Below, in pieces: positions 9,008 to 55,600 of a stretch of DNA of 64,000 nt; position 1 is the first letter of the stretch; each line of letters opens with the position of its first letter. Location of the stretch: contig NC_086097.1 in NCBI RefSeq assembly GCF_963921235.1, positions 52,640,001 to 52,704,000 on the forward strand, given 5' to 3'. The stretch comes from Mobula hypostoma (taxonomy: Eukaryota). The notes under the pieces were generated by a model. The model searched no databases and was not told the DNA's origin. It was given only the letters and a program-made list of their open reading frames with translations. Position numbers and translations under genes: made by a program.

Positions 9008-9318
9008 CCCCTCCCTCTTTCTTTCTCCCTAGGCCTCCCATCCCATGATCCTCTCATATCCCTTTTGCCAATCACCTGTCCAAATCTTGGCTCCATCCCT
9101 CCCTCCTCCTGTCTTCTCCTATCATTTCGGATCTCCCCCTCCCCCTCCCACTTTCAAATCTCTTACTAGCTCTTCTTTCAGTTCGTCCTGACGAAGGGTC
9201 TCAGCCCGAAACGTCGACTGTACCTCTTCCTAGAGATGCTGCCTGGCCTGCTGCGTTCACCAGCAACTTTGATGTGTGTTGCTTGAATTTCCGGCATCTG
9301 CAGAATTCCTGTCGTTTG
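9008..9318 (+). mobile_element. PLE terminus followed by a copy of the flank of the 16.3-17.7 kb element
   Basis: Similar to 17400-17713 and followed by 9319-9497, which matches 17714-17891. Confidence 0.8.
9184..9219 (+). ncRNA. Minimal hammerhead ribozyme
   Basis: GUC-CUGACGA-AGGGUCUCAGCCC-GAAAC-GUC-GAC. Confidence 0.65.
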
Positions 9319-9593
9319 CATTTCTTCAGAGAATAAGGTTGTACATTGGTAGGTCTGACAGAAAACGCACCTGCATTGTCAAAGAGTGTGCAAAATTTTG
9401 GCAAGAACCTTAACAGCTTAGAGCCTCTTTAAATCAGAATAGTTGGTAAACCTGATTTAAACTTTGGATTCAAATATGTGGCCAACATTTTAGGAGAACG
9501 TTGCAAAATGTTGGAGGAACTCAGCAAGCCAGGTAGCACCTATGGAGAGGAACAAACGGCTGATGCTTTGCGCCAAGACCTTTCATCAGGCCT

Positions 9594-17713: not shown

Positions 17714-20159
17714 CATTTCTCCAGAGAATAAGTTGTACATTGGTAGGTCTGACAGAAAACACACCTGCATTGTCAAAGAGTGTGCAAAATTTTGGCAAGA
17801 ACCTTAACAGCTTAGAGCCTATTTAAATCAGAATAGTCGGTAAATCTGATTTACACTTTGGATTCAAATATGTGGCCAACATTTTAGGAGACGGGAACAA
17901 CCAAGCCGTGTTTCTAATGAGAGTAGGTGTTGTGGGACGTGATAGTGAGGGTTATATCAAAAGGCACACCTTCAATTGGTGAATCAGAAGAGAACGTGGA
18001 TGAGTGAAAAATGGGGTGTGAGAAGGGTTATTTGTAATGTCGTTATTAGCATCTTCATGGATTCAGTCTTGCAATTGACCGCAGACTGACCACTGGCTGC
18101 AGTAATTATTGTAAGCACGATACTCCCAATCTAGGTAAAAGAAGCGGCCACAACATTAAACACTCACCTTGCAAGGTAGAGATATAAGCACATGAGTAAG
18201 TATTGTTTGGTGTTTGCATCGTGTGCCTATCAAATGCAAGCTGTGAGATGTTTGTGAGAGGATTATAGCAATGCTCTATTTGAGAGACTGTAGTGAAACA
18301 AGAGAAAATTCAGTGCAAAGCTGATTGAAATACGTTATTTGTAGGAAAATGAAGGGGATGAAGTGTTTTGAGCAATGGCTGAATGTGGATTAGCATTTTA
18401 TATAATTCTTTATTTAACATGCTAGTAGAAGAATTGAGGGTGTTGGCACTATTTAAAAGACGCAAAATAAATATCTCCCAATTTAGAGAAATGAGCTATA
18501 ATCAGAAGTGGTGGACAGTATGGAGAAGCTGCTTGAAAATCAGTGATTATTTTGACAGAGAACAGATGTTCTGTTTCCTGACATTTCTCTTAACTTATTA
18601 GGAGTTAAATCTTTTTAATGATGAAGAAAATTTAAATTAGATTCTTAGGTTTATCAATGAAGAAAGGCATTGTCTCTTTCAACATTGAATAACACCTAAT
18701 TAAATGTTAGTCACTGTATATCATTTATATTGTTTGTTACTGATTTGCAGTACAAAGCACTTGTCATAACAATGTGGTTTAGAAAGTTTACAGACAGATA
18801 TTCTAAGAAAACATTACAAATCAATTCATTAACCTGCAACAGAAGTAAAGAAACTTTAACTTTACTAAACTTTAGAAGTCAGCTTTCTCACATTTCCATT
18901 CCATGACACCCTTTGAAGAGAAACATTTTTTTTCCCTAAAGATGTTTACATTACTACCCTCTTTTGTATGATTAAAGTCATGGTCTGGTCTTTATCAAAT
19001 TACGGTATTGCTTTGCACTGTTGTAACTATATGTTATAATTATGTGGTTTTTGTCAGTTTTTGTCAGTTTTAGTCTTGGTCTGTCCTGTGTTTCTGTGAT
19101 ATACTGGAGGAACATTGTATCATTTCTTAATGCATGCATTTCTAAATGACAATAAATGAGAACTGAGCGTCCTCATGAGTGTCCTCATAATCTAATTTTC
19201 ATATTTTACAATTTCGCCTTTCCCTCCAAATCAAAGAGGCAGCTAAGGAAAACCATGTGAATCAAAACTGTATTTGCCTCTTCATGGGATAGATCCTTTT
19301 GTCTGCCCTATTCAGCAACTCCCTAATATATTGACAATATCACAGGGGCTGCTTCCTGCTCTTGAACAAAGGTTAGAGGTTTCATTGCCATCTCTGCAAG
19401 TCTCCATTCGGTTCTCAATTTCACGTGATCCATGCCTGACTCTTCCTTTCCCTTTCTTGGCATCTCTGTCTCCAGTGACCATTACCCAAATGCAAACCTG
19501 GATATCTGGTGCAACCTGCTTTCTATGAGAACTCCATTCCTTTCACCTTCCACATCGTTGCCTCTGTGGTGCCTTTCTTTTCCCTAAATGCAATTTCCCA
19601 TCATTTCCCACACTTCTGCTCTCATCTCCTCTCCTCACATTCAGAGCCAGCACCAAGCTCATCTTGTTATACTCCCCCTTAAGCATTCAATCCATTTGCA
19701 TTGCAATTCCTTCAACTCCTGTAAAACTAACGCTCTGTTCCAAAATGGCTTCCCATTCAATCAGTGAAGGTGCAAAACTTGACAATTTACCTGCTGGGAC
19801 CCAAATATTCCTTCCAACTAAAACAGAGGGTCTATTGTATTTCTTCTACTTTATTATAGAACATTGGTGAAATCAAACCCAGACTGGATATCTGCTCTGC
19901 AAAGCACTTCTTTTTTGTTTGTATGAGTGAATCTAAGATTCCAGTTGACTGTCTCTATCACTGTCCTTTCCACTCTTTTCTGATTTGATCTTTTGCACGT
20001 TAAATTCAAGGAATAGCAACTTCTGTCCGTACTGGTTTCAATAAAGTCCTCAGGACTCAACATGGAATTCAGCGATTCCAAATAATCTGCTTTTTTAATT
20101 TGCATCAGATCTGGTGCTGTGTTGATGAAAGGTCAGCAACTTAGAATGTTTTGCAGCCT

Positions 20160-28900: not shown

Positions 28901-30043
28901 TAACTAAAACTATTAAAACTTTAATCGTTAGTAACAGACATGGTGATCAGATTGTCAGAAAATCTTCGCTAAATTTTCTTTCTACACATACACTGCCTGA
29001 TCTTCTCTACAATAGTTCTAATCTATATTTCACAGCTTTTATGTCTCTTCATTGATTGTTTCTCTAAATGAACCTGTTATCCATCAACTAGATGGTTTTA
29101 CAAACAGCGTATCGCATTGATAATCCTGACCTCACCTTATCAGAAACACTCCTTTTGTTCAATCAAACTTTCTCCCACCCTCTCAGTGACTTAAAGCCAA
29201 TTTGTTTCTTACTTTTCTAGTTCAGACAAAGTGACTTCAACCTGAAACTTTAACTGTGCCGCCTTTTCACAAATGCTGCCTGGTCAGCTGAGAGTTCCAA
29301 CCATTTTCTGCTCTTGTTGCACTGTATGCCGGGCCATTCCGACATTCATATGCTGGACAGAGTGTTCCATTGTTGCTGGAGATCAGGAAGCCCAACTGAT
29401 TTTGGACTTTCTCATCAAAGCTCAAGTACAGGCCACTGAAATAATTCCTCCTCTAAGCAGGAGGTCTGGATTTCTGGATACTTTGTCATTGACACAACTT
29501 CTTGGATGTTTTTTTAAAATTTCAGAGGTATTCAAGAATCAACCACATTAGTGTGGTACTAGAGTTATTTATATGAGACATGTTGTAAGGTCAGCTAATT
29601 CCTTTTTTTTCCCCAAGGGATTTAGATAAGATTTTCTATTTTAGAAAATGGTATTTCAGATAAGAAATATCTGAAATATATTGTATTAATATATGTATTT
29701 TTGTCACAAGCTTTAAAACTCAGTTTTAGTTATTTCATTGAATTCAAATCTTCAGATGGCAGTAATGTGATTTGTATATTAATATGAGCCTCTGGCTTCT
29801 GCCTACTAATGTGTTTCAGTTCTCCTGTTCCCATGTAGTATTCATTAACTATGCTGACAAAAAAAAACTTATGTTTAATGTATTTCATTTCCCTAATTTA
29901 TCGCAGTAGCTGGGAAATGCATGTGCCACAAAAAGAAATTGCAGTAGGTTCATCAGACTTTTCAGGAGGGTATGCTGCTCGTTCCTTGGTTGAGTCTTCC
30001 TGAAAAAGCCATCCTCTCGAACTGGCATACAAACTGTTCAGTT

Positions 30044-30330
30044 CAACACACTCAAAATGCTGGAGGAATTCAGCAGGCCAGGCAGCATCTATGGAAAAGA
30101 ATACATAATCGACGTTTCGGGCTGAGACACTCATCAGGATGTAAGACCTATTGACAAAACAACTGAATGGTTTCACAAACACAAGAATGAATTGTCTCTT
30201 CCTGATGAAGGGTGTCGATGAAACGATCACTGTTCACTCTTTTCCATAGATGCTGCCTGGCCTGCTGAATTCCTCCAGCATTTTGTGTGTGTTGCTTTGG
30301 ATTTCCAGCATCTGCAGATTTTCTCCTGTT
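30044..30330. mobile_element. Older short inverted pair of PLE-type termini
   Basis: The - copy (30044-30140) has a CUGAUGA..GAAACGUC core at 30108-30140; the + copy spans 30200-30330. No TSD seen. Confidence 0.65.
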
Positions 30331-30530
30331 TATGACTCATATCCTATGAATGCATTAAAAAAAAACAAGATACAGTAGGTGAAGACAGCCGTTGGTAGGT
30401 GAATACTTATTGCCAACTTAAAATTTAATCGCAAACAACAGGAATTCTGCAGATGCTGGAAATTCAAGCAACATACATCAAAGTTGCTGGTGAACGCAGC
30501 AGGCCAGGCAGCATCTATAGGAAGAGGCGC

Positions 30531-30566
30531 AGTCGACGTTTCAGGCCGAGACCCTTCGTCAGGACT
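30531..30566 (-). ncRNA. Minimal hammerhead ribozyme (PLE left arm)
   Basis: Reverse complement of the 33788-33823 motif. Confidence 0.75.
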
Positions 30567-30860
30567 AACTGAAGGAAGAGTGAGTAAGGGATTTGAAAGC
30601 TGGAGGGGGAGGGGGAGATGCAAAATGATAGGAGAAGACAGGAGGGGGAGGGATGGAGCCGAGAGCTGGACAGGTGATAGGCAGAAGGGGATACGAGAGG
30701 ATCATGGGACAGGAGGTCCGGGAAGAAAGACGGGGGGGGGGGTGACCCAGAGGATGGGCAAGAGGTATATTCAGAGGGACAGAGGGAGAAAAAGGAGAGT
30801 GAGAGAAAGAATGTGTGCATAAAAAAGAGTAACAGATGGGGTACAAGGGGGAGGTGGGGC

Positions 30861-32591
30861 CTAGCGGAAGTTAGAGAAGTCAATGTTCATGCCATCAGGT
30901 TGGAGGCTACCCAGACGGAATATAAGGTGTTGTTCCTCCAACCTGAGTGTGGCTTCATCTTTACAGTAGAGGAGGCCGTGGATAGACATGTCAGAATGGG
31001 AATGGGATGTGGAATTAAAATGTGTGGCCACTGGGAGATCCTGCTTTCTCTGGCGGACAGAGCGTAGATGTTCAGCAAAGCGGTCTCCCAGTCTGCGTGG
31101 GGTCTCACCAATATATAAAAGGCCACATCGGGAGCACCGGACGCAGTATATCACCCCAGTCGACTCACAGGTGAAGTGATGCCTCACCTGGAAGGACTGT
31201 TTGGGGCCCTGAATGGTGGTAAGGGAGGAAGTGTAAGGGCATGTGTAGCACTTGTTCCGCTTACACGGATAAGTGCCAGGAGGGAGATCAGTGGGGAGGG
31301 ATGGGGGGGACGAATGGACAAGGGAGTTGTGTAGGGAGCGATCCCTGCGGAATGCAGAGAGAGGGGGGGAGGGAAAGATATGCTTAGTGGTGGGATCCCG
31401 TTGGAGGTGGCGGAAGTTACGGAGAATAATATGTTGCTCCCGGAGGCTGGTGGGGTGGTAGGTGAGGACCAGGGGAACCCTATTCCTAGTGGGGTGGTGG
31501 GAGGATGGAGTGAGAGCAGATGTACGTGAAATGGGGGAGATGCGTTTAAGAGCAGAGTTGATAGTGGAGGAAGGGAAGCCCCTTTCTTTAAAAAATGAAG
31601 ACATCTCCCTCGTCCTAGAATGAAAAGCCTCATCCTGAGAGCAGATGCGGCGGAGACGGAGGAATTGCGAGAAGGGGATGGCGTTTTTGCAAGAGACAGG
31701 GTGAGAAGAGGAATAGTCCAGATAGCTGTGAGAGTCAGTAGGCTTATAGTAGACATCAGTGGATAAGCTGTCTCCAGAGACAGAGACAGAAAGATCTAGA
31801 AAGGGGAGGGAGGTGTCGGAAATGGACCAGGTAAACTTGAGGGCAGGGTGAAAGTTGGAGGCAAAGTTAATAAAGTCAACGAGTTCTGCATGCGTGCAGG
31901 AAGCAGCGCCAATGCAGTCGTCGATGTAGCGAAGGAAAAGTGGGGGACAGATACCAGAATAGGCACGGAACATAGATTGTTCCACAAACCCAACAAAAAG
32001 GCAGGCATAGCTAGGACCCATACGGGTGCCCATAGCTACACCTTTAGTTTGGAGGAAATGGGAGGAGCAAAAGGAGAAATTATTTAGAGTAAGGACTAAT
32101 TCCGCTAGATGGAGCAGAGTGGTGGTAGAGGGGAACTGATTAGGTCTGGAATCCAAAAAGAAGCGTAGAGCTTTGAGACCTTCCTGATGGGGGATGGAAG
32201 TATATAAGGACTGGACATCCATGGTGAAAATAAAGCGGTGGGGGCCAGGGAACTTAAAATCATCGAAAAGTTTAAGAGCGTGAGAAGTGTCACGAACATA
32301 GGTCGGAAGGGATTGAACAAGGGGTGATAAAACAGTGTCGATGTATGCAGAAACGAGTTCGGTGGGGCAGGAGCAAGCTGAGACAATAGGTCGGCCAGGA
32401 CAGGCAGGTTTGTGGATCTTGGGTAGGAGGTAGAAACGGGAAGTGCGGGGTGTGGGAACTATAAGGTTGGTAGCAGTGGATGGGAGATCCCCTGAGCGGA
32501 TAAAGTCGTTGATAGTGTGGGAGACAATGGCCTGATGCTCCTTGGTGGGGTCACGATCGAGGGGTAAATAAGAGGAGGTATCCGCGAGTTG
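30861..32591 (-). CDS. PLE reverse transcriptase + Cys-rich linker + GIY-YIG endonuclease (open frame, N-terminus missing)
   Basis: RT motifs LPKIHK, FTMDVQSLYTSIP, QTKGVAMG and LRYIDD; linker CKRNKCYTC; endonuclease VIYCVRCSRCGLLYIGET..RFAEH. No stops from the inversion junction to the TAG. Confidence 0.9.
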   Translation of the reverse strand, partial: QLADTSSYLPLDRDPTKEHQAIVSHTINDFIRSGDLPSTATNLIVPTPRTSRFYLLPKIHKPACPGRPIVSACSCPTELVSAYIDTVLSPLVQSLPTYVRDTSHALKLFDDFKFPGPHRFIFTMDVQSLYTSIPHQEGLKALRFFLDSRPNQFPSTTTLLHLAELVLTLNNFSFCSSHFLQTKGVAMGTRMGPSYACLFVGFVEQSMFRAYSGICPPLFLRYIDDCIGAASCTHAELVDFINFASNFHPALKFTWSISDTSLPFLDLSVSVSGDSLSTDVYYKPTDSHSYLDYSSSHPVSCKNAIPFSQFLRLRRICSQDEAFHSRTREMSSFFKERGFPSSTINSALKRISPISRTSALTPSSHHPTRNRVPLVLTYHPTSLREQHIILRNFRHLQRDPTTKHIFPSPPLSAFRRDRSLHNSLVHSSPPSLPTDLPPGTYPCKRNKCYTCPYTSSLTTIQGPKQSFQVRHHFTCESTGVIYCVRCSRCGLLYIGETPRRLGDRFAEHLRSVRQRKQDLPVATHFNSTSHSHSDMSIHGLLYCKDEATLRLEEQHLIFRLGSLQPDGMNIDFSNFR

Positions 32592-33494
32592 TCCACTGAT
32601 GTCTACTATAAGCCTACTGACTCTCACAGCTATCTGGACTATTCCTCTTCTCACCCTGTCTCTTGCAAAAACGCCATCCCCTTCTCGCAATTCCTCCGTC
32701 TCCGCCGCATCTGCTCTCAGGATGAGGCTTTTCATTCTAGGACGAGGGAGATGTCTTCATTTTTTAAAGAAAGGGGCTTCCCTTCCTCCACTATCAACTC
32801 TGCTCTTAAACGCATCTCCCCCATTTCACGTACATCTGCTCTCACTCCATCCTCCCACCACCCCACTAGGAATAGGGTTCCCCTGGTCCTCACCTACCAC
32901 CCCACCAGCCTCCGGGTCCAACATATTATTCTCCGTAACTTCCGCCACCTCCAACGGGATCCCACCACTAAGCATATCTTTCCCTCCCCCCCTCTCTCTG
33001 CATTCCGCAGGGATCGCTCCCTACACAACTCCCTTGTCCATTTGTCCCCCCCATGCCTCCCCACTGATCTCCCTCCTGGCACTTATCCGTGTAAGCGGAA
33101 CAAGTGCTACACATGCCCTTACACTTCCTCCCTTACCACCATTCAGGGCCCCAAACAGTCCTTCCAGGTGAGGCATCACTTCACCTGTGAGTCGACTGGG
33201 GTGATATACTGCGTCCGGTGCTCCCGATGTGGCCTTTTATATATTGGTGAGACCCCACGCAGACTGGGAGACCGCTTTGCTGAACATCTACGCTCTGTCC
33301 GCCAGAGAAAGCAGGATCTCCCAGTGGCCACACATTTTAATTCCACATCCCATTCCCATTCTGACATGTCTATCCACGGCCTCCTCTACTGTAAAGATGA
33401 AGCCACAATCAGGTTGGAGGAACAACACCTTATATTCCGTCTGGGTAGCCTCCAACCTGATGGCATGAACATTGACTTCTCTAACTTCCGCTAG
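32592..33494 (+). pseudogene. Inverted duplicate of the PLE C-terminal RT/GIY-YIG region
   Basis: Same peptide as the - strand ORF C-terminus with a few substitutions (REQH/RVQH, HSSPPS/HLSPPC, TLRL/TIRL). Confidence 0.85.
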
Positions 33495-33787
33495 GCCCCA
33501 CCTCCCCCTCGTACCCCATCTGTTACTTATTTTTATGCACACATTCTTTCTCTCACTCTCCTTTTTCTCCCTCTGTCCCTCTGAATATACCTCTTGCCCA
33601 TCCTTTGGGTCACCCCCCCCTTGTCTTTCTTCCCGGACCTCCTGTCCCATGATCCTCTCGTATTCCCTTTTGCCTATCACCTGTCCAGCTCTCGGCTCCA
33701 TCCCTCCCCCTCCTGTCTTCTCCTATCATTTTGCATCTCCCCCTCCCCCTCCAGCTTTCAAATCCCTTACTCACTCTTCCTTCAGTT

Positions 33788-33823
33788 AGTCCTGACGAAG
33801 GGTCTCGGCCTGAAACGTCGACT
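33788..33823 (+). ncRNA. Minimal type I hammerhead ribozyme in the PLE terminus
   Basis: AGUC-CUGACGA-AGGGUCUCGGCCU-GAAAC-GUC-GACU: stem I AGUC/GACU, intact core, hairpin stem II, palindromic ACGU stem III. Predicted cleavage after 33819. Confidence 0.75.
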
Positions 33824-34039
33824 GCGCCTCTTCCTATAGATGCTGCCTGGCCTGCTGCGTTCACCAGCAACTTTGATGTATGTTGCTTAAAATTTAATCA
33901 TTTGGTCCCAAATACTGCAACAGTATCTGTTTTCTTCAGGAACCGGTTGTTACTCACACCAACCTCGTTTGCTGCAAGTTTCATCCTAGCAACGAAACAG
34001 AAATGGTGTTTCTCATTGAAATTCTGAAAACCTAGTGGG

Positions 34040-34585
34040 GACGCGGGACAGGCAGATGTCAGGCGGGGCAGCGACCACATAGAGGGGGATAAAGGTGGAT
34101 GTGGCCGGTAAAGGGGAATGGTGCTGGCGAGATGGACGAGCATTTAGTGCGTGGTGGGACTGGGGCAGTTGCTGGGCGATGAGAAGGGGTAGATGTCGGG
34201 AGCCGAATGGTGACCAAGTAGAGGGCAGTGGGCAGGTGATTACAGGGAGTGGGGTAAATGCCGGGAGGGGGCGGGGTAAATGCCTGGGGCGGGGCGGGGC
34301 GAGGCGAGTGTGGGAGTTAGCGGGACGGCTGTTTACTCATTAGGGTAGTTCTCCGGGACAGGGAGATCTGACGTCAGCGAGTTTTCCGCCCTGGGCTCGG
34401 GTATTCTGGAGTCACACGTGGTCCCGTTTGAAACGGTTCGCATCCAGAGCGCCCGAGCTCCCGGTTTATCCCGCAGTTACCTCAGGGAAGGTGCGTTAGA
34501 GACACCCAAGCCGCCTGGGCATCGGTGAGCGACTGTTCGGTCCTTCTCCTTCCCGAGTGGGTGAAGCAGGGATCGCGCCGCGGCC
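34040..34585 (+). promoter_or_regulatory. CpG-island/GC-box promoter and 5' UTR of the EP2-like gene
   Basis: Sharp rise in GC and CpG content. GGGGCGGGG boxes at about 34268-34300, TGTTTAC at 34330-34336, perfect CRE TGACGTCA at 34369-34376, E-box CACGTG at 34415-34420. Confidence 0.75.
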
Positions 34586-35368
34586 ATGATCAATGAATCT
34601 TGCGAGAACAGGACAGATATTACCCAAGATGCGGGGCCCTTCGTCAGCGCCGCGATGTTCGCTACTGGGGTGCTGGGCAACGTACTGGCGCTCGTCATCC
34701 TCGCAATGCACAAGCGAGACCTCAAGAGCAAAATGTCGCTCTTCCACATCCTCGTGAGCAGCCTAATTATTACCGACCTGGTGGGAACTCTGATCATCAG
34801 TCCGATGGTACTGACCGCCTACGCCCGGCGCCGCACACTGCTGACTCTGAGCTTATGCAGCTGTTGTGCCTTCGCCATGGCTTTCTTCGGGCTCTGTTCC
34901 ATGTTCATCCTGTTTGCTATGGCGGTAGAGCGCTGTCTCTCCCTCAGTTGTCCCTACTTCTACCGACGGCACGCCAGCAACCGCTGCGGGCTGATCACCA
35001 TTCCGGCTATCTATATTTTCTGCCTTATCTTCTGTTCCCTACCCCTGCTGAAGTTTGGCATCAACGCGCAGTATTGCCCGGGCACCTGGTGTTTCATCAA
35101 GATGGAAGTTTGGAATCTGGAGGTGAAGCACCGCGTCTATTCCCTGTCCTACGCGGTTCTGATGAAGGTGCTGATCATCTCCATTCTACTGTGTAACATC
35201 TCCGTAATAGTCAACCTCTGCCGAATGTACCAAAGGCAAAAGACCCGCCGGCACTCGAGTGCGCACCGAACAAGAAAGCATCGGCATTCCCAGTCCGAAG
35301 AAGTTGATCATCTCGTTCTTTTAGCCATAATGACAACAACGTTTGTTATTTGTTCTGTGCCTCTCACG
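34586..35368 (+). CDS. PTGER2: Prostaglandin E2 receptor EP2-like, coding exon 1 (N-terminus to TM6, 261 codons)
   Basis: Kozak gccATG at 34586. Motifs GVLGN (TM1), TDLVGTLIISP (TM2), MAVERCLSL (TM3), QYCPGTWCF (ECL2) and EEVDHLVLLAIMT (TM6). Donor ACG|gtgagt at 35368/35369, the conserved TM6 intron position of prostanoid receptors. Confidence 0.9.
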
Positions 35369-35774
35369 GTGAGTGTTAATATTGTCTAATACAGTGCAGA
35401 ACTTTTCCCAAAGGGGGATGTAAATATAAACATATTGTCACCCTGCCTACTTCCAGATTTTGTGCAGATGCAAGAATTCTAGATGCAAGAAAAATGGTGA
35501 GTAAAATTAGGAAAAAGAGGCCAGTCATTTGTAAGGGCTGTGAAGTTGTATGTGTGTATGTATATATGTAACATTTTTAATCTTCACTGATTCAACTTGA
35601 GAAAGAAAACTTCAGAATTGCTTATCCATAGAAATTAATTCATTTGAAATTGGAGGTTGGAAAGTTAATTTATAGGGATATGCCATCAATAAGGATCGTA
35701 ATGAGAGGTCAGGAGACATAAAGGGCTAATGTGAATTTAGTATCATCATATATCATCTACTAATAAATTGGATT

Positions 35775-35906
35775 TTCAAATCCCTTACTCACTCTTCCTT
35801 CAGTTAGTCCTGACGAAGGGTCTCGGCCTGAAACGTCGACTGCGCCTCTTCCTATAGATGCTGCTTGGCCTGCTGCATTCACCAGCAACTTTGATGTATG
35901 TTGCTT
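35775..35906 (+). mobile_element. Short PLE terminus inserted in the EP2 intron
   Basis: Near-identical to 33757-33888. 14-bp TSD taataaattggatt at 35761-35774 and 35907-35920. Confidence 0.88.
35806..35841 (+). ncRNA. Minimal hammerhead ribozyme, sense strand of the EP2 intron
   Basis: Identical to 33788-33823. Confidence 0.75.
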
Positions 35907-36470
35907 TAATAAATTGGATTGCTCATTTTTGCATTGTTTCAGATTAGTTAAAACTTAAACTACTTGGTGATTTAACCAACTGAGAAATGTAAATATAAGC
36001 ATATTTCCAATAATCACAAAGTATGAGTCATCATCATGGCTTTGCCAATGATGGCCAGTCCTGATTCAGGACTTCAGTCTGAAACACTGACAATCCCTAT
36101 CATCTCCACCTGCTTGACCTGCTGAGTTCCTCCAGAACTTTGTTTTTTTCTACTGGATTACAGCATCTACAGTCTCTTGTATCTCCATGACCAGATCTAA
36201 TGTATGAATATATAAATGTATATATTTTTATTGTTATGCAATTATCTACACAAATTATAGTAACTTGTATTGCATTTTATAAAATGGTATTTAAAGGCTA
36301 TCTAAAAGTTTCCTAATGATTAAAGTACTTTTTGAGCAAAAATGCACCTTAATGGTCTTATATTTGATTGCTTAAATCAGATTCAAAATGTGAGACATCA
36401 TAATAGAACTGTAATATTTAGACTTTTCTTTGAAACTGATACAAATATTTGACCTTATATTTTTCCTTAG

Positions 36471-36695
36471 ATTCGTGCATACATTGGAGCATTTCACAAT
36501 GTCGAAAACGATGGAAATGATCTTGTGGCTCTCCGTTGCCTGTCTTTTAATTCAATTATTGATCCATGGGTTTTTATTATTCTCAATACAACTGTGTTTA
36601 GAAAGATATTGTCCAGGATATTATGCTGTAAAATTACTTCTAAAAGAAAACAATTACATTGCAACACTGATAAAAGTATTGAAATACTCACATGA
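36471..36695 (+). CDS. PTGER2: Prostaglandin E2 receptor EP2-like, coding exon 2 (74 aa + stop; full protein 335 aa)
   Basis: Acceptor ttttccttag ends at 36470, phase 0, matching exon 1. Reads [74 protein letters not shown] (TGA 36693-36695). NSIIDPWVF and LCC resemble EP2. Confidence 0.88.
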   Translation: MRAYIGAFHNVENDGNDLVALRCLSFNSIIDPWVFIILNTTVFRKILSRILCCKITSKRKQLHCNTDKSIEILT

Positions 36696-37177
36696 AGTCA
36701 CTTTGGGACAGGCATTCCTGATACTTGAATTTACTGAAAGTTTTTTCCAAAACTTATTTACAACCAAACCATCATTTTGAGAGAAAGATGCACTTGATAT
36801 CATGTGGGATTTGGCACATGAATTTGCTTTTTTGTATTTTCATCGAGTAAGAAGAAAGTTACCAATAAATCAACAGATAAGGGACATGCACAGAGGTTTT
36901 TGACCTGTTGAGAGTCTGGCTGACATAAGCTATGAAGCATCATTATTTTTCTCTCTGTGATTCTTCAAATATTTGAGAAAATATTGTAATTTTGTAATTT
37001 TATTTTAAACCATGTACTCACTTTCAAGCTTTATTTTATAAATTTAATTTTTGCATTCCTCTGTTTAAAGGATAGCTTATATAGGTTGAATTAGCTTTCA
37101 AATTATTAAAACAAAATATAGTGAATGGGTCTATTTATATAAAGCCAATACTGGTTTTATAATCTATTTAAATTACA

Positions 37178-37646
37178 CAAACAACAGGAATTCTGCAGAT
37201 GCTGGAAATTCAAGCAACACACATAAAAGTTGCTGGTGAATGCAGCAGGCCAGGCAGCATCTCTAGGAAGAGGTGCAGTCGACGTTTCAGGCCGAGACCC
37301 TTCGTCAGGACTAACAGAAGGAAGAGTGAGTAAGAGATTTGAAAGTTGGAGGGGGAAGGGGAGATCCAAAATGGTAGGAGAAGACAGGAGGGGGAGGGAT
37401 GGAACCCTTGGTTTACAGCATCTACAGTCTCTTGTATCTCCATGACCAGATCTAATGTATGAATATATAAATGTATATATTTTTATTGTTATGCAATTAT
37501 CTACACAAATTATAGTAACTTGTATTGCATTTTATAAAATGGTATTTAAAGGCTATCTAAAAGTTTCCTAATGAGGGATGGAACCCATCTTCCTAGAGAT
37601 GCTGCCTGGCCTGCCTGCGTTCACCAGCAACTTTTATGTGTGTTAC
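37178..37646. mobile_element. Short inverted PLE insertion enclosing a 162-bp copy of EP2 intron DNA
   Basis: The - terminus spans 37178-37407, the captured segment 37413-37574 and the + terminus 37588-37646. 10-bp TSD ttaaattaca at 37168-37177 and 37647-37656. Confidence 0.88.
37277..37312 (-). ncRNA. Minimal hammerhead ribozyme downstream of the EP2 stop codon (antisense)
   Basis: Reverse complement of the same motif, core intact. Confidence 0.72.
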
Positions 37647-40600
37647 TTAAATTACAGTTTGTTTGATAATAATATGGACTGCCCTACCAAGGAACCAAAT
37701 TTTGTTTAGTATTTTTGAGGGGAATAGATTGTTGGCTATCAGTTGCTCTCTGTAGCTATGTAGAAATATATGAATTATCAGAAGCCTGCCTTTCACTCAA
37801 ACCATGACCCTATTGTTCCTCTCAGGTGGATATAGGGCGACACCAGAAGGCAAGTCAGTATTTCCTGCGACCTGTCTTATATTTTTAAAGCAATAAAATA
37901 AGACAGATAATCTCTTATTATTTTGTTCCCTTTTTGTGTGTTACACAAAAGCTGGCAGCCTCATTTCCAGTACTACTATAGTTAATACACTTCAAGAAAC
38001 CTCACTGGTGATAAAACTTTATTTGAATGTTCTGAGATTTATCAAAAACACTATCTAAATGCAGGCCTTCTTTTATTAGATGATCCTCTGGATTTTAAAT
38101 TGCGCTAAACCTTGAGATATCATTTCCTGTTGGAATTTTACAAAATTGTACTCACAGGCACATTTTTCCATAGCTGTTTAAACTAGAATGTTAGGAAACA
38201 CTTTATGTACTTTTATGGCAAAGAATTATTTTCTGCACCTCAAGTTGTCACTTCAGCTAATACAAAGAAAGTTCTACAGTCCAAGTCCTTCGGTGACAGT
38301 AGTGCTATAACTGGAGGGACAGTGTCACAACTCCAGTGAGCTGGATTCAAGCATGACATCCAGTGTCCTCTGTGGAGTTCTCCCTGTCATGGTGCAGGTT
38401 TTTTCCAGATGTTCCATTTCCTCCCATGTCCCAGAAATGTGGCAATCAGTATGTTAATTAGTTACTATGAATTGCCTTAACGTGTAAGTGAGTAACAAAA
38501 GCTAGGGAGAGTTGATTGAAATGTGGGTAGAATAAAATGGGTAGTTGATGGTCAGCTTATACTTGGTGGGCCAAAGACTCACTTCTGTGCTTTATCTCTA
38601 TGGCCCCAGCTCAATCATCACCAAGCCTGGATATGGTCAAGACCCAAGTGCTCTTATCAGTTCCCAATAGTTTGTTGTTGATTACAAAGTCTTCAAAACT
38701 TGTAAAGAATTCCTCCACTGACAGAGTCTTGCATGATTTTTGATCTTACTGGATCTGTTCTGTTATTGCAGAATTATTTGCGATGCCTTTGACTTCTACT
38801 TCCCCATCTAAGAAGCCGATCATTTAGCAACATTGTCCCTGACTTCTGGAATTTTTTTGTACTTAACTTCCAACTTGCATCAGTACCAAAAAGAACCTGT
38901 TAAAAAACACTCTTACGCATCTTAGATTTTCCTCAGTCATGGCTTTTCCGCTCAGTGCTGGTGTCTACAGGTTTTTGGTCTTTGAGGAATGAAGAGCAGG
39001 AAGCAAGTTTTGTTATTGACAGATAGATGTGTTTCCCAAAATAGAAAACAAAATTGAATTTGTTACTTTATTAGATCTCATAGAAAATTTTCATGTTATT
39101 TCATCTGTATTCAATAGATCTTTAAACCACTTGATAAATTCATTTCCAAGCAATGTTATGTTGAAAAGCTGAGATCACAGTATATGTATATGATCATAAC
39201 CTGTTATTCATTATTTTGATTTCATAATTCTTGTTAAATAGTTTATAGTATCTTAATAAATATATTCTTTTGTAACTGAGCACTTATAATTCAAGTTTTA
39301 AACAAAGTTTTAATCTTGGCTTTTATACATTTTATTGTAACCCTGCAAATATCTAGTTTTTCTTTTATATTTTGCACAGTGTGCACTGGTTCATTTTGGT
39401 TGGAGTAATATGTACAAATACTCAAGTTAAATCCTATCCTATATTTCCTATACTTGATAAATAATATGAAATAAATATTCTATACATTTTAAATTAATGG
39501 CACACATGAACCAACTTCTGCCAGCCTTACCAAATGATGTATTTAAGTTTGAAGCACAAAGTGATAGTAATTTTGATTCATTATTAATTGATGAAAGTTT
39601 ATCTGATTGTACAGAATGTATAATGTATTATGAATTAGGGACCGAATGAACAGTTTGTAATGATCATTTCCAGTATTTGAAATAAAACTGGTAAATGCCA
39701 TCAGATCACTTAAGTTCTGTTTTAAAAGGACTTCTACTCAAGGTACATCTGTGTTTAATGTAAATTCCTTCTCTTGTCCTGTAGTTAAAATTTCTCTCAA
39801 TTCTTGATCAATAATTGATGTACAGTACATAGTGTATTTTTAAATGAAAAACTGTTACTGTTAAGTTGTACAAAAGTTTAACATGTTTCCTTTCGAAACT
39901 GTAATTTTGCAAATATATCTTGGAACTTCGTCTGCGATATAACAAGGTACAAATGAAAAACCAAGGTCTTTTCAAATGATTCTGCTTAGTTTTGTAAACT
40001 AATTGTAAAACAGAAAACCTACTTTATGATTAGATATTTTCTGGAGCCAGGCTGATATCAGCCTGATGAAATTACGTATTGCATATGCATTTCATAAGTT
40101 AAATATGAACTATGCAGTAAATTATAATTACTGGAATGTATGTACTCATAACATATATTGGAGGTTCATCTGTTGTACAGACGAAGTATGAATGATATTG
40201 TTTTAACAAACAAAGTCTATTGTTCCATAGATTTATGTGGTTAAAACCACACACAGGATATTTATGTATTTCCAACATGTTATTTTTATATAATATTGCA
40301 CTTCAAACAACTTTTCTAATAAATGTACAGGACTTTGGGTTTCTTCTCTTGTCACTAACTTCTCCAGGGTACTAGAGGGATTGATCTCTGGGAATGGATT
40401 TTTTTTTTGTAAAGCAGAGATTAAGCTATCTGAATTTCTATTAGTAGAGTTTAGGAGAATGAGAGATGATCTTATTGAAGCAAAGCAAGTTCATACAGGG
40501 GCTTGACAAAGTAGGTGCATGGATTATGCTATCAGTGGTTGGCTTCCTTGAACTAGGAGCCAGAGCCACAAAATATAGAATCAGCTATTAATAGGAAAAG

Positions 40601-40804
40601 GCATTGCCTCTCCCAGAAGAACCTTTGGAATTCTTCACTCCTTAGGATTGAAGGCTTAGACACTGGAATTTTAGATGTTAGAAAATCAATATAGGAGCAG
40701 AAAGTAAGTTTTGTTTCCAACGGGTGTTTTCCTAAAACAGGTAAAAACATGACTTACATCACACAAGAAAATTCTCACTTTTATTGGCTCTCACAGACAT
40801 GATA

Positions 40805-43370
40805 TAGTATAGTCATACTTTATTGATCCCAGGGGAAATTGGTTTTCGTTCCAGTTGCACCATGAATAATAAATAGTAATAAAACCATAAATAGTTAAAT
40901 AGTAATATGTAAATTGTAAATTATGCCAGTAAATTATGAAATAAGTCTAGGACTAGCCTATTGGCTCAGGGCGTCTGATCCTCCAAGGGAGGAGTTGTGA
41001 AGTTTGATGGCCACAGGTGGGAATGACTTCCTGTGACGCTCTGTGTCGCATCTCGGTGGAATGAGTCTCTGGCTGAACGTACTCCTGTGCCCATCCAGTA
41101 CATTATGTAGTGGATGGGAGACATTGTCCAAGATGGCATGCAACTTAGACAGCATCCTCTTTTCAGACACCACCGTCAGACAGTCCAGTTCCATCCCCAC
41201 AACATCACTGGCCTTACGAATGAGTTTGTTGATTCTGTTGGTGGCTGCTACCCTCAGCCTGCTGCCCCAGCACACAACAGCAAACATGATCGCACTGGCC
41301 ACCACAGACTCTTGTAGAAAATCCTCAGCATCGTCTAGCAGATGTTAAAGGACCTCAGTCTCCTCAGGAAATAGAGACGGCTCTGACCCTTCTTGTAGAC
41401 AGCCTCAGTGTTCTTTGACCAGTCCAGTTTATTGTCAATTCATATCCCCAGGTATTTGTATTCCTCCACCACGTCCACACTGACCCCCTGGATGGAAACA
41501 GGGGTCACCGGTACCTTAGCTCTCCTCAGGTCTACCACCAGCTCCTTAGTCTTTTTCACATTAAGCTGCAGATAATTCTGCTCACACCATGTGACAAAGT
41601 TTCCCTCCGTAGCCCTGTACTCAGCCTCAACTCCCTTGCTGATGCAACCAACTATGGCAGAGTCATCCGAAAACTTCTGAAGAGGACAAGACTCTGTGCA
41701 GTAGTTGAAGTCTGAGGTGTAAATGGTGAAGAGAAAGGGAGACAAGACAGTTCCCTGTGGAGCCCCAGTGCTGCTGATCACTCTGTCGGACACACAGTGT
41801 TGCAAGCACACGTACTGTGGTTTGCCAGTCAGGTAATCAAGAATCCATGATACCAGGGAAGCATCCACCTGCATCGCTGTTAGCTTCTCCCCCAGCAGAG
41901 CAGGGCGGATGGTGTTGAACGCACTGGAGAAGTCAAAAAAACATGACCCTCACAGTGCTGGCTGGCTTGTCCAGGTGGGCGTAGACACGGTTCAGCAGGT
42001 AGAGGATGGCATCCTCAACTCCTAGTCGGGGCTGGTAGGCAAACTGGAGGGGATCTAAGTGTGGCCTGACCATAGGCCGGAGCAGCTCCAGAACAAGTCT
42101 GTCCAGGGTCTTCATGATGTGGGAGGTCAATGCCACCGGGCTGTAGTCATTGAGACCACTGGGGCACGGCGTCTTCGGCACAGGGACGAGGCAGGACATC
42201 TTTCACAGTACAGGAATCCTGCAGAGCCCCAGGCTCAGGTTGAATACATGGCGAAGTACTCCACATAGCTGAGGGGCACAGGCTTTGAGCACCCTGGTAC
42301 TGGTACCATCCGGTCCTGCAGCCTTGCTTGGGTTGAGACGTTTTAGCTGTCTTCTCACCTGTTCAGCTGTGAAGCCCACTGTGGTGGTTTCGTGCGGTGA
42401 AGGGGTATAGTCATGAGAGCAGGGTGGGGGACTGTGAGGAGGGGTAGGAGGGGAGAGTGGAATATGTGTTGGTTGGGGGCCGACAACAGATGGCTCATGT
42501 GGGGGATGGGCTGGGGTCACAACGTCAAATCTGTTAAAGAACAGGTTAAGTTCATTGGCCCTGTCCACACTGCCTTCAGCTCCTCTGTTACTAGTTTGCC
42601 GGAACCCAGTGATGGTCCTCATCCCCCTCCAGACCTCTCTCATGTTGTTCTGCTGGAGTTTCCACTCAAGCTTTCTCCTGTACCTGTCTTTAGCCTCCCT
42701 GATCCTGGCTTTCAGGTCCCTCTGTATTGCCCTCAGCTCCTCCCTGTTTCCATCTCTAAATGCCCTCTCTTTGGCGTTCAGGATGTCCTTAATATCCTTT
42801 GTCACCCATGGCTTTTTATTTGAATAACAAAGGATAGTGCTTGTCAGAACATTGCAGTCCACACAGAAGTTGATGTAATCAGTGATGCATTCTGTGAGCC
42901 CATCAATATCCTCTCCATGTGGCTCACAGAGTGCCTGCCAGTTTGTCACCTCAAAACAACCCTGGAGCGCCTCATAAGCCTCCTCCGACCATTTCCTCAC
43001 TGTCCTCGAGGTTGCAGGTTTACTCTTCACCAGAGGCACGTAGCAGGGTTTTAGATGCATCAGGTTGTGATCTGACCTTCCCAGTGGGGGGAGGAGAGAG
43101 GAGCTGTATGCATCCTTAATGTTAGCGTACATCAAATCCAGAATCCTCTCCCCTCTGGTTGTACAGCTCACATACTGCATGAAGTTGGGCAGTGTTCTAG
43201 CCATGATAACATGGTTGAAGTCACCCAAGATGGTAATAAGGGCACTCGGGTGCTGGGTTTGTAATCTGGCTATGACAGTGTAAATGATGTTACACGCTGA
43301 CGTCGGGTTGGCAGAGGGAGGGATGTACACAAAAACCACAATTGCATGCGAGATTTCCCTTGGCAAATAT
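40805..43370 (-). mobile_element. Rex1/Babar-like LINE, 5'-truncated, fairly young
   Basis: ORF pieces 42203-43399, 41933-42199, 41440-41874 and 40958-41305 with ILGDFNH, GRSDH, KAAGPDG, GAPQGTVLSP, KFSDD, YKYLG. Confidence 0.9.
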
Positions 43371-46649: not shown

Positions 46650-48805
46650 AAAGTAAGGGAACCCTTGGGAGGGAGTAATCATGATATGATCGAATTCACC
46701 CTGCAGCTTAAGAAGAAGAAGCTAAAAATTGATGTATCATTAGTACAGTGGAGTAAAGGAAATTACAGAGGCACGAGAGAGGAGCTGGCCAAAGTTGATT
46801 GGAAAGGGACACTAGCAGGGATGAAGGCAGCACACATAAAATTTCCAGCATCTGCAGATTTACTCTTGTTTGTGGTGGGATGAAGGCAGAACAGCAGTGG
46901 CTGGTGTTTCTGGGGGAAATTTGGAAGGCGCTGGAAAGATACATTCCAAAGATGAATAAGTATTCTAAAGGGAGGATGAGGCAACCATGGCTGACAAGGG
47001 AAGTCAAAGATAGCAAAAAGCAAACTGTAGAGCACATAATATAGTAAAAGTTCATGGGAAATTAAAAGATTGGAAAGCTTTTAAAACCGTCAGAAGGCAA
47101 CTAAAAAATACCATAAGGATATAAAAGATGAAAATACGAAGGTAAGCTAGCCAAAAATATCAAAGAGGATACCAAAAGTTTTTCAGATATATTAAAAGTA
47201 AAAAGAGGTGAGAGTGGATATTCGACCACCGGAAAATTACGCTGGAGAGGTAGTAATGGGGCAAATAAATGGTGGGAAAACTTCTTAAGTATTTTACATC
47301 AGTATTCACTGTAGAAGACTCTAGCAGTATGCCAGAAATTGGAGAGTGTCGGGGAGCAGAAGTGAGTGTAGCTGCTATTACTAAGGAGAAGGTGTTTGGA
47401 AAGCAGAAGGGTCTGAGGTAGGTAAGTCACCTGGCACCAGGGTTCTGAAAGAGGTATGCAGTTGAAGAGATTGTGGAGGCATTAGTAATGATCTTTGAAT
47501 ATTACTATATTCTGGAATGGTTCTAGAGGACTGGAAAATTGCAAATGTAACTCCACTCTTTAAGAAGGGAGGGAGGCCAAAGAAAGGAAATTATAGATCA
47601 GTTAGCTTGACTTCAAGTGGTTGGGGTCAACATGGTTTCCATAAAGAGAAATCTTGCCAGACAAATCTTTTGGAATTCTTTGAGGAAATAACAGGCAGGA
47701 TAGCCAAAGGAAGAGTCAATGGATGTTGTTTATTTGAATTTTCAGAAGGCCTTCGAAAAGGTACCACACATGAGGATACTTAACAAGATAACAGCCCATG
47801 ATATTACAGGAAATATACTAGCATGGATAGAAGACTGGCTGAAGGGCATGAGGCAAAGAGTCAGAATAAAGGGGCTATATTCTGTTTGGCTGCCAGTAGT
47901 GTGGTGTTCCACAGGTCAGTACTGGGACCACTTCTTTTCAATGATTTGGATGATGGAATCGATGGCTTTGTGGCCAAGTTTGCAGATGATACAAATACTG
48001 GTGACGAGGCAGGCAATGTTATGGAAGCAGGGAGTATGTAGAAAGACTTGGACAGATTGTTAGAATAGGCACAGAAGTGACAGATGGAATATAGTGTAAG
48101 GTCATGTATTTTGTAGAAGGAATAAAGGCACAGGCTGTTTCCTAAACAGGGAGAAAATTTAAAATTCAGAAGTGCAAAGGGACCTGGGAGTCCATGTCCA
48201 AGACTCCTTGCAGGTTAACTTGCAGGTTGAGTGGCTGGTAAGGGCAAATGCAATGTTAACATTCATTTTGTGAAGGCTAGAATGTAAGAGTAAGGATGTA
48301 ATGCTGAGGTTTTATAAGGCATTGGACAGACCATACTTGGAGTATTGTGAGCAACTTTGGGCCCTTTATCTAGGAAAAGACATGCTGGCATTGGAAATGC
48401 TGGAGCTTAGAAGAATGAGGGAAGATCTCATTGAAACCTATCAAATATTGCAAGGCCTAGACAGAGTGGATGTGGAGAGGTTGTTTCCTATAGTGGATGA
48501 GTCTAGGACCTGAGGGCACAGCCTCAGACTAGAGCGATGTCCATTTAGAACAGAGATGAAGAATTTCTTTAGCTAGAGAGTGGTGAATCTGTGGAATTTA
48601 TTGCTACAGATAGCTGTGCAGGCCAAATCGTTGAGTATATTTAAAGCAGAGTTTGATAGCTTCTTGTCTAGTCAGGACTTCAAAGGCTATGGGGAGAAAG
48701 CATGCTAATGGGAGTTAGATAATAAATCAGCCATGAAGAAATGGCAGAGCAGACTCGATATACCAAGTGGCCCAACTCTGCTCCTATATCATAATGGGCT
48801 TATGG
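46650..48805 (+). mobile_element. Degraded CR1 LINE
   Basis: [33 protein letters not shown] fragments. Confidence 0.85.
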
Positions 48806-52625: not shown

Positions 52626-53198
52626 ATAAGTTTACAGAATAAGATTGAGATTCAGGTTTATTATCACTGACATTTGGTGTGATGTTTGTTGTTTTGCAAC
52701 AGCAGTACAGCACAGCGCAAAGACATAAAAATCTATGAATTACAAAAATAAACAAGTTGTGCGATTAGAAGGAATAATGAGTTGGTGTTATTGATTCATG
52801 GGCCAGAAAATAAAAAGCTGTTCCTGAATCCTTGCATAGTGGTCTTCAGGGTCCATTACCTTCTTGCTGATGGTAGTAATGTGAACAAGGCATGTCCTGG
52901 ATGGTTAGGGTCTTTCATCATAGATGCCACATTCTTGAGGCACTGCATCTTGAAAATGTCCTTGAAGATGATTGTGCCATGATGGAGCTTGCTTAGTCTA
53001 TAACCTCCGCAGCCTCTCGTGATCCTGTGCATTGGAGGCTCCATACTAGGCTGGTTACTCACCACTGTACAGCTATAGAAATTTGCAAGTCTTTGGTGAC
53101 ATACCAAATCTCCTCAAATGCTGAACAGTCTAGAGCTGCCAGAAAGCCTTCCTGATTGCATCAATCTGCTCCGATTTGTTGAACTTAAAGCTGCTTGC

Positions 53199-54055
53199 CC
53201 TTTCCACCACTGACCCCTCAGTGAGAACTTTTCACTGCTGACCCCTCAGTGAGAACTTCCCACTGCTGACCCCTCAGTAAGAACTTTCCACCGCTGACCC
53301 CTCAGTGAGAACTTCCCACCACTGACCCCTCAGTGAGAACTTTCCACGCTGACCCCTCAGTGAGAACTTCCCACTGCTGACCCCTCAATGAGGACTTTCC
53401 ACCACTGACCCCTAAGTGAGAACTTCCCACTGCTGACCCCTCAGTGAGGACTTTCCACAGCTGACCCCTCAGTGAGGACTTTCCACTGCTGACCCCTCAG
53501 TGAGAACTTTCCACCACTGACCCCTCAGTGAGAACTTTCCACCACTGACCCCTCAGTGAGAACTTCCCACCGCTGACCCCTCAGTGAGGACTTTCCACCA
53601 CTGACCCCTCAGTGAGAACTTCCCACCGCTGACCCCTCAGTGAGGACTTTCCACCACTGACCCCTCAGTGAGAACTTCCCACAGCTGACCCTTCAGTGTG
53701 GACTTTTCACTGCTGACCCTTCAGTGTGGACTTTCCACCACTGACCCCTCAGTGAGAACTTTTCACTGCTGACCCCTCAGTGAGGACTTTCCACCACTGA
53801 CCCCTCAGTGAGGACTTTTCACTGCTGACCCCTCAGTGAGGACTTTCCACCACTGACCCCTCAGTGAGGACTTTTCACTGCTGACCCCTCAGTGAGGACT
53901 TTCCACCACTGACCCCTCAGTGAGGACTTTTCACCGCTGACCCCTCAGTGAGGACTTTTCACTGCTGACCCCTCAGTGAGGACTTTTCACCGCTGACCCC
54001 TCAGTGTGGACTTTCCACTGCTGACCCCTCAGTGAGAACTTCCCACCGCTGACTT
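53199..54055. repeat. 28-bp minisatellite, about 30 copies
   Basis: Unit ctttccaccactgacccctcagtgag(a/g)a; tgacccctca recurs at 53211, 53239, 53267 and onward. Confidence 0.95.
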
Positions 54056-54059
54056 CTCA

Positions 54060-55600
54060 CTGGCTACTGTGGAAGGCAAGGGAGGAGATTGCTGAGTCTC
54101 TGGCAATGATCTTTGCATCATCAATGGGACGGGAGAAGTTCTAGAAGGTTGGAGAGTTGCGGATGTTATTCCCTTATTCAAGAAAGGCAGTAGAGATAGC
54201 CCAGGAAATTATAGACCAGTGAGTCTTATTTCAGTGGTTGGTAAGTTGTTGGAGAAGATCCTGAGAGGCAAGATTTATGAACATTTGGAGAGGCATAATA
54301 TGATTAGGAATAGTCAGCATGGCTTTGTCAAAGGCAGGTCATGCTTTGCAAGTCTGATTGAATTTTTTGAGGATGGGACTAAACACACTGATGAAGATAG
54401 AGCAGTAGATGTAATGTATATGGATTTCAGCAAGGCATTTGATAAGGTACCCCAAGCCAAGCTTATTGAGAAAGTAAGGAGGCATGGGATCCATGGGGAC
54501 CTTGCTTTGCGGATCCAGAACTGGCTTGCTCACACAAGGTAAAGAGAGGTTGTAGACAGGTCATATTCTGCATGGAGGTCGGTGACCAGTGGTGTGCCTC
54601 AGGGATCTGTTCTGGGACCCCTTCTCTTCGTGAACTTTATAAATGACCTGGATAAGGAAGTGGAGGGATGGATAGTAAATTTACTGATGACGCAAAGATT
54701 GGGGGTGTTGTGGATAGTGTGGAGGGCTGTCAGAAGTTACAGCGGGACATTGATAGGATGCAAAACTGGGCTGAGAAGTGGCAGATGGAGCTCAAACCAG
54801 GTAAGTGTGAGGTGGTTCATTTTTGTAGGTCAAATATGATGGCAGAATATAGTACTAATGGTAAGACTCTTGGCAGTGTGGAAGATCAGAGGGATCTTGG
54901 GGTCAGAGTCCATAGGATATTCAAAGCTGCTGCACAGGTTGACTCTGTGGTTAAGAAAGCATACGGTGCATTGACCTTCATCAACCATGGGATTCAGTTC
55001 AAGAGCTGAGGGGTAATGTTGCAGCTATATAGGACCCTGGTCAGACCCCACTTGGAGTACTGTGCTCAGTTCTGGTCAGCTCACTACAGGAAGGATGTGG
55101 AAACTATAGAAAGGGTGCAGAGGAGATTTACAAGGACGTTGCCTGGATTGGGAAGCATGCCTTATGAGAATAGGTTTAGTGAATGGCCTTTTCTCCTTGG
55201 AGCGATGGAGGATGAGAGGTGACCTGATAGAGGTGTATAAGATGATGAGAGGCATTGATCGTGTGAACAGTCAGAGGCTTTTTCCCAGGGCTGAAACAGC
55301 TAACATGAGAGGGCACAGTTTTAAGGTGCTTGGAAGCAGGTACAGAGGAGATGTCAGGGGTAAGTTTATTACGCAGAGAGTGGCGAGTACGTGGAATGGG
55401 CTGCCGGTGATGGTGGTGGACGCAGATACAATAGAGTCTTTTAAGAGACTCTTGGATAGGTACATGGAGCTTAGAAAAATAGAGGGATAGAGGGCTATGG
55501 GTAACCCTTGGTAATTTCTAAAGTAAGTACATGTTTGGCACAGCATTGTGGGCCAAAGGGCCTGTATTGTGCTGCAGGTTTCTATGTTTCTCTGTTTCCA
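54060..55600 (+). mobile_element. CR1 LINE, 5'-truncated, inserted within the minisatellite
   Basis: [30 protein letters not shown]; tttctatgtttc tail. Confidence 0.88.

Follow-up and report, generated by a model that had tools for sequence, protein, structure and literature searches.

The locus described here raises the question of when, and by which route, a piece of host DNA came to lie inside a mobile element. At the centre of an inverted Penelope (PLE) insertion framed by one target duplication (TSD), the window (the whole 64-kb stretch of DNA under analysis) carries a copy of nearby intron sequence, which could have been taken up while the element integrated or added to an element already in place. 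We argue, with a probability of about 0.62, that the 162-bp intron copy was added later to a shared inverted PLE, in the lineage of this genome, by break repair that copied DNA 1.3 kb upstream.

Sequencing runs

The contigs of 4 runs, among 23, were placed on positions 36330-38400 of the window; these are de Bruijn contigs, which branch at k = 31. Run X1 derives from organism A and is possibly the source sample of the window, hence it is not independent of that individual. Run X9 derives from one individual of a relative, organism B, and 84% of the run was read. Over 1,679 aligned flank bases, A and B differ at 40 (2.4%).

Structure of the insertion

The insertion at 37168-37656 consists of the following features:

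37168..37177, + strand: left copy of the PLE TSD TTAAATTACA, exact over 10 bp
37178..37406, - strand: inverted antisense PLE arm with its tail at 37178-37210, 94.8% identical to the long PLE copy 30432-32756
37394..37407, + strand: first copy of a 14-bp duplication; 12 of 14 bases fit the family and 2 are private to the junction
37408..37412, + strand: left junction bases, 5 nt, 3 of which also match the donor at 36154-36156
37413..37574, + strand: filler, identical to the donor at 162/162 positions; its last 2 nt are microhomology with the second 14-mer
37573..37586, + strand: second copy of the 14-bp duplication
37588..37646, + strand: short sense PLE arm without tail; 54/56 columns match the left arm
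37647..37656, + strand: right copy of the PLE TSD TTAAATTACA, exact over 10 bp

The arms lie head-to-head, are 5'-truncated and carry a tail on one arm only, and the outer TSD, exact over 10 bp, reaches 13 bp if one mismatch is allowed. With the duplication at 37168-37177 and 37647-37656 around one antisense and one sense arm, the single TSD-bounded inverted PLE insertion of the original prediction was borne out. The arms differ from each other in 2 of 56 columns and are, over 37178-37646, 91-95% identical to a long sibling copy in the window.

The filler had also been said to be bracketed by a repeated 14-mer of PLE sequence. The bracket is there, and its two copies, starting at 37394 and 37573, are the only exact ones in the 64-kb window; the 14-mer is not pure PLE, as positions 37403 and 37407 deviate from the family, with the same two bases in both copies. 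The family continuation at 37403 was present in loose ends of all 4 runs. As both copies have two non-family bases, they were copied from one junction sequence. The duplication would thus have copied the finished junction and not two stretches of PLE RNA, and a variant source element could also explain the two bases.

The source of the filler lies in an intron upstream of the insertion, in these features:

36060..36186, + strand: old PLE 3' terminus remnant in the intron, with a tail-equivalent at 36154-36186; 71-85% identical to other PLE ends in the window
36158..36319, + strand: donor, reaching back to 36154 if one mismatch is allowed and the 3 matching bases beyond it are included; GA|TTA at either end

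The predicted identity of 37413-37574 to 36158-36319 was found at all 162 positions; extended leftward, the match becomes 165/166 between 37409-37574 and 36154-36319, with the sole mismatch at 37412/36157. The donor does start, as had been read, in the tail of the older PLE terminus, whose tail-equivalent matches the tail of the young family in 22 of 36 alignment columns, and the first ~30 bp of the filler are therefore old PLE tail. The remaining 128 bp that are not PLE (37445-37572) have one strong match in the window, the donor, in agreement with a filler templated from local intron sequence. The gap between donor end and filler is 1,090 bp, which places the copy ~1.3 kb from its donor in the same, gene-sense orientation; the donor has 25% GC and no CpG. 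At the filler junctions there are 2 nt of microhomology on the right, 1-5 junction bases on the left and the 14-bp duplication, and no poly(A). Small snap-back hairpins at the two inner junctions were not significant (z 0.59 and -0.32). A similarity between the PLE target site and the left edge of the donor was rejected as chance, with 18 matches at 3 edits or fewer in the ~5 kb on each side, counting both strands and the target copies themselves.

The PLE family in the window

The long sibling copy at 30432-33894 holds an ORF of 631 aa (30861-32756) with the RT followed by a C-terminal GIY-YIG domain, a CxxC between GIY and YIG, and, between RT and EN, a visible C-x4-C-x2-C linker. Pfam gave RVT_1 at 1.7e-5 and GIY-YIG at 5.9e-4 on this ORF, both under Pfam's curated cut-offs. 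According to the accessible text of PMC8557442, a CX2-5CxxC linker between RT and EN defines the Neptune/Nematis type; by this definition the family would be an EN+ PLE of that type, the clade name resting on the linker motif and not on a tree. The sibling is itself a young inverted PLE, with arms 99% alike and a 14-bp TSD; its end lies ~690 bp upstream of the receptor start codon, and its inversion junction near 32589 has no filler.

Exact flanking duplications of at least 7 bp were found around 5 of the 14 other PLE pieces examined (14, 14, 14, 13 and 9 bp), which makes 14 bp the modal TSD length of the family. Two of the four clean duplications in the window are not AT-rich; the flank consensus in the run contigs is AT-rich. 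A minimal inverted PLE at 46818-46889, of ~45 bp (a 10-nt antisense piece plus tail) within a 13-bp purine-rich TSD, shows that the family also uses sites that are not AT-rich.

Near 37278-37313 of the left arm stands what we take, from its letters, to be a hammerhead-like motif, to which Rfam gave no match; over 30000-42000 Rfam returned nothing relevant (2 chance matches). At 37312, the edge of this motif, 273 records of X1 and 224 of X9 depart from the family sequence, and the boundary is common to many PLE copies in both organisms A and B.

A second local duplication touches a PLE end, 9008-9497 against 17403-17891, 7.9 kb apart. It comprises 311 bp of PLE 3' end, the 14-bp TSD of the insertion at 16288-17713 and ~165 bp of unique flank, with 96% identity in the flank part (172/179) and 90% in the PLE part (281/312), and the copy at 9008-9497 is not framed by any TSD of at least 7 bp. 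It could represent a resident PLE that copied the flank of the other copy via tail homology, or a 3' transduction. Elsewhere in the window, 53183-54077 is an array of ~31 copies of a 28-bp unit.

The receptor gene around the donor

The donor lies in the intron of a two-exon gene:

34586..35368, + strand: coding exon 1 of a prostanoid receptor (IP/EP2/DP group); 7tm_1 E 4e-23, PDB matches
36471..36695, + strand: coding exon 2 including the stop codon; translation, DP/EP2 matches, X5 contig 17

The gene had been called EP2. Among solved structures, exon 1 comes closest to IP and EP2 (best PDB matches 3.9e-71 and 1.9e-69, bit scores 242.8 vs 237.3) and exon 2 to DP and EP2 (scores 33.5 vs 31.6). 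Because exon 1 favours IP over EP2 and exon 2 favours DP over EP2, we did not retain that name and assign the gene to the IP/EP2/DP group only.

The PLE insertion lies ~470 bp 3' of the receptor stop codon. In X5, a presumed RNA run of organism A, contig 17 has 998 other bases and then fits from 36470, like a spliced transcript; one contig of this run goes from the splice acceptor into the left arm and another exits the right arm, and for this reason the insertion site is probably the receptor 3' UTR. The arms (37207-37271 and 37588-37653) fold into a long RNA stem of -192.5 kcal/mol (z -10). Such a predicted hairpin in a probable 3' UTR is a candidate for A-to-I editing, with a loop that the filler enlarges.

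The receptor intron also contains a sense PLE of 137 bp at 35774-35910 with a 14-bp TSD. Its 98% identity to the copy 2 kb upstream may reflect a local hop, or no more than shared membership of one young subfamily. With the left arm it is 94% complementary over 37208-37344, and pairing between the two in the pre-mRNA could loop over the donor.

Copy number of the filler in organism A

A mis-join would produce just such a perfect 162-bp identity beside a high-copy repeat, and X1 may be the sample behind the window assembly; the filler might then be an assembly artefact or else a multicopy part of the PLE family, which were named beforehand as the readings that would undo the original prediction. 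The independently assembled contigs of X1 branch exactly at 37413 and 37574: one contig of 162 nt falls exactly on this interval with zero differences, and the left flank contig, of 911 nt, begins 30 nt inside the right end of the donor, as a branch at k = 31 requires. The filler contig has a depth of 24.9 vs 15.6 and 13.1 for the flanks, i.e. ~1.7x flank depth, which lies between the heterozygous (~22) and homozygous (~29) expectations and fits two copies at most, whereas the PLE bins next to the filler have depths in the millions. With only a single match of 37445-37572 in the window in addition, neither the artefact nor the multicopy origin seems credible to us.

For the presumed RNA runs, four in number, 0.66-0.69 of the words were present, with 0.70 expected without the filler and 0.84 with it. 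X5 has no cover at 37522, which is a hole and not a bridge; we rejected it as evidence of an A allele lacking the filler, as a strong hairpin or a filter could cause such a hole.

The same locus in organism B

As in X1, both arms are reached by X9 contigs: one stops at 37200, 23 nt into the left arm, and another starts at 37623, within the right arm. Precisely, contig 25 fits 36330-37200 and, contiguous in record coordinates, the donor, and contig 30 starts at 37623. Since X9 contigs enter the left arm and leave the right arm, the PLE is shared and older than the split of A and B.

The donor presents itself differently. One X9 contig of 1,084 nt crosses the entire donor unbranched at a depth of 45.6, the other flanks having 45.5 and 44.8; its record positions 882-1047 fit the filler coordinates, ten bases after record 871, and it is the sole contig over 37522. 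X1 breaks exactly at both filler ends, hence the same assembly method registers the duplication when it is present. What is in view in B is therefore both outer PLE junctions together with a single-copy donor, the inner junction being absent among the 15 joints listed of 171. The original prediction had taken the filler as a direct record of host-sequence capture during integration; with both PLE junctions in B, a single-copy unbranched donor there and 0/162 filler-donor differences, we do not uphold this claim. The filler likely postdates the PLE insertion, unless B deleted it.

The filler sequence points the same way with less force. Had it been as old as the split, ~3.9 differences from A's donor would be expected and 0/162 were found (P 0.021 at the flank rate, 0.095 if 37412 is counted as a substitution); the likelihood ratio of a young over an old filler is 13.8 with the flank rate and falls to 5.2 and 3.2 if that rate is halved or quartered. 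This dating is weak because the donor is AT-rich, lacks CpG and differs between A and B at only 1/162 sites, and a lower substitution rate in the donor is plausible from its composition. The G/A difference at 37522, which corresponds to donor position 36267, has no polarity, because organism D equals B at all 4 sites shared. In run X18 (organism D) contigs cross the right edge of the donor unbranched, a result that we set aside as too weak (depth 5, PLE junctions not in view).

Discussion

The directly observed elements are the identity and the boundaries of the copy, the two-copy depth in A, and the outer PLE junctions and unbranched donor in B. The steps that we propose to account for them begin with a staggered break, or a centre break followed by end processing, next to the arm-to-arm junction. 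One 3' end would then anneal to the intron (through 2 nt of microhomology on the right, or through a 5/6 match or 5 junction bases on the left), a repair polymerase would copy 162-166 nt in the same orientation, and the strand would return, with fill-in leaving the 14-mer on both sides. The PLE endonuclease would be the leading candidate for the source of the break, as 14 bp is the family's usual duplication length.

Repair-mediated duplications of this sort were catalogued by Pace, Sen, Batzer and Feschotte (2009, PMC2671141; 824 in human, 80 in zebrafish), as inserts of at least 50 bp that interrupt a TE and have one donor, at a distance of more than 50 bp but within 5 kb. Here 162-166 bp interrupt a PLE without being a TE copy (128 bp have no repeat match in the window), and the one donor lies 1,090 bp away, the X1 depth fitting two copies at most; poly(A/T) is absent, and microhomology, filler and a TSD are present. 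In the accessible part of that paper the donor is within 5 kb for 824/1,136 human inserts in TEs, the mean insert length is 162 bp, equal to the length found here, and the distances show an apparent peak near 1,200 bp. Among its 39 inspected proximal cases, poly(A) was seen in 0/39, a TSD in 6/39 (class range 4-21 nt, which includes ours) and microhomology, TSD and filler together in 2/39. With both outer junctions and a single-copy donor in B, the present one would, like those duplications, be lineage-specific with respect to a relative. By analogy with the breakpoint signatures used in PMC2671141, SDSA-like DNA synthesis at a double-strand break may have made the filler. The survey covered mammals, chicken and zebrafish, and its screen, as far as its accessible text describes it, needed TE halves in the same orientation, so that it would have passed over a copy lying centrally in an inverted insertion. 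Two features are unlike the catalogued cases: the TSD has the duplication length of the host element itself, and the edge of the donor meets an old PLE tail.

Two points weigh against later repair. Most proximal cases of PMC2671141 (33/39, in its accessible part) have no TSD, and the filler lies within 1-2 nt of the arm junction, where a random event in a 310-bp element would fall ~5% of the time by a rough estimate. A centre-specific break must consequently be assumed. Breakage at the centres of inverted repeats is known and would explain the central position of the filler. If the interior of B were a longer palindrome, the present-day junction would itself be a repair scar.

The exact placement at the arm junction is in turn the attraction of capture at integration, by which one cDNA end would have copied the last 14 nt of the other, switched to the intron (as DNA or pre-mRNA) and returned, with B losing the filler afterwards. 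The donor begins 1-4 nt from where the family's sense arms stop (query 2295-2297; nominal post-hoc P 0.007), host DNA between PLE ends has been published for rotifers (PMC3846280) and local rearrangements at L1 integration sites have been published as well (bioRxiv 2024.12.14.628481). Capture needs, however, a second event, a loss in B between the 14-mers, and precise losses between duplicated ends are rare, at 0.003% per lineage for whale SINEs in the accessible part of PMC10531181; moreover, no difference separates the filler from its donor, even though the PLE dates back at least to a split of 2.4% divergence. We hold this account to be unlikely. Still less probable, in our judgement, is a later trans-mobilisation: the resident copy would have been cut again by the PLE endonuclease, with its 14-nt stagger, and the RT would have primed on the 2-nt microhomology and reverse-transcribed 162-166 nt of the unspliced receptor transcript. 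The 14-bp duplication has the modal length of the family, the filler is in the sense orientation of the gene, and a PLE protein cuts and extends both strands in vitro (PMC11167929, accessible part). On the other hand poly(A) is absent, and this route gives no reason for a donor 1.3 kb away, which repair copying does (PMC2671141, same reservation). Published PLE initiation is internal to the PLE RNA and copies upstream of the tail, whereas the filler extends downstream from the tail. The 14-mer is also purine-rich against an AT-rich flank consensus, yet the two clean window duplications that are not AT-rich soften this point.

Returning to later repair, three features hint at an involvement of the PLE endonuclease; they were noticed post hoc, their figures are uncorrected for the number of features examined, and two other junction features failed similar tests. 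The flanking duplication of the filler, 14 bp, is the usual target duplication of the family. The start of the donor is 1-4 nt from the position in the remnant at which young sense arms stop and the tail begins (nominal chance 0.007). Both ends of the donor read GA|TTA, and 0.9% of random segments have a 5-mer in common, in register, between their ends; TTAAA after the right donor end occurs in 1.5% of random cases. The accessible text of PMC11167929 places RT initiation at tail edges, has both strands cut at ATT and notes that the tail is needed for endonuclease recognition in D. virilis Penelope. The endonuclease may thus have re-cut the settled inverted copy with a 14-nt stagger and nicked the donor at two GA|TTA sites bounding the copied stretch, one of which would be the tail boundary of a still older PLE; we regard this as a tentative proposal, with the odds against it. 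The same three hints are also the best support for capture at integration.

The insertion itself resembles canonical inverted insertions of EN+ PLEs, as these appear in the accessible parts of PMC8557442, PMC11167929 and PMC3846280, in its head-to-head 5'-truncated arms, its one TSD, a 30-40-bp tail on one arm only, and the RT and GIY-YIG ORF with CX2-5CxxC in the sibling. It is unlike them in that their usual junction, and that of the long sibling here too, is without local host filler. Host intron-derived DNA between PLE termini inside one TSD recalls the pLTR capture of Adineta vaga (PMC3846280); in the part of that paper that could be consulted the cargo is kilobases long and moved with the element, whereas here it is 162 bp, local and framed by a duplication of its own, and a relative with the element apparently lacks it. 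A cargo as old as its element, which capture of the A. vaga type would require, is not what we see, since in B the PLE is present and the cargo copy was undetected, with a later loss possible. TSIPs (PMC5110952) are likewise short templated inserts, with a TSD in class 1 and microhomology and junction bases in class 2; as described in the accessible text, their donors lie far away, poly(A) and an L1 site are requirements of class 1, and TSDs are missing in class 2. At the filler junctions we found neither the poly(A) tail nor the TTTT/A site of class 1. In the literature searched, with most subscription journals outside it, we found no published local templated filler at a PLE inversion junction.

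Conclusions

The event is real and small. Most probably it is a repair-mediated duplication of the ordinary kind, younger than the Penelope insertion that encloses it. A single TSD around host DNA does not prove that this DNA was captured at integration, and comparison with a relative can tell the two events apart. If the endonuclease proposal is true, the PLE endonuclease would be an ongoing source of short local duplications in a PLE-saturated genome, recognisable by flanking duplications of 13-15 bp and by donors that end at PLE cut motifs. The source of the breaks behind repair-mediated duplications is a matter of speculation in the accessible part of PMC2671141, and if the 14-bp signature holds genome-wide, the finding would bear on it.
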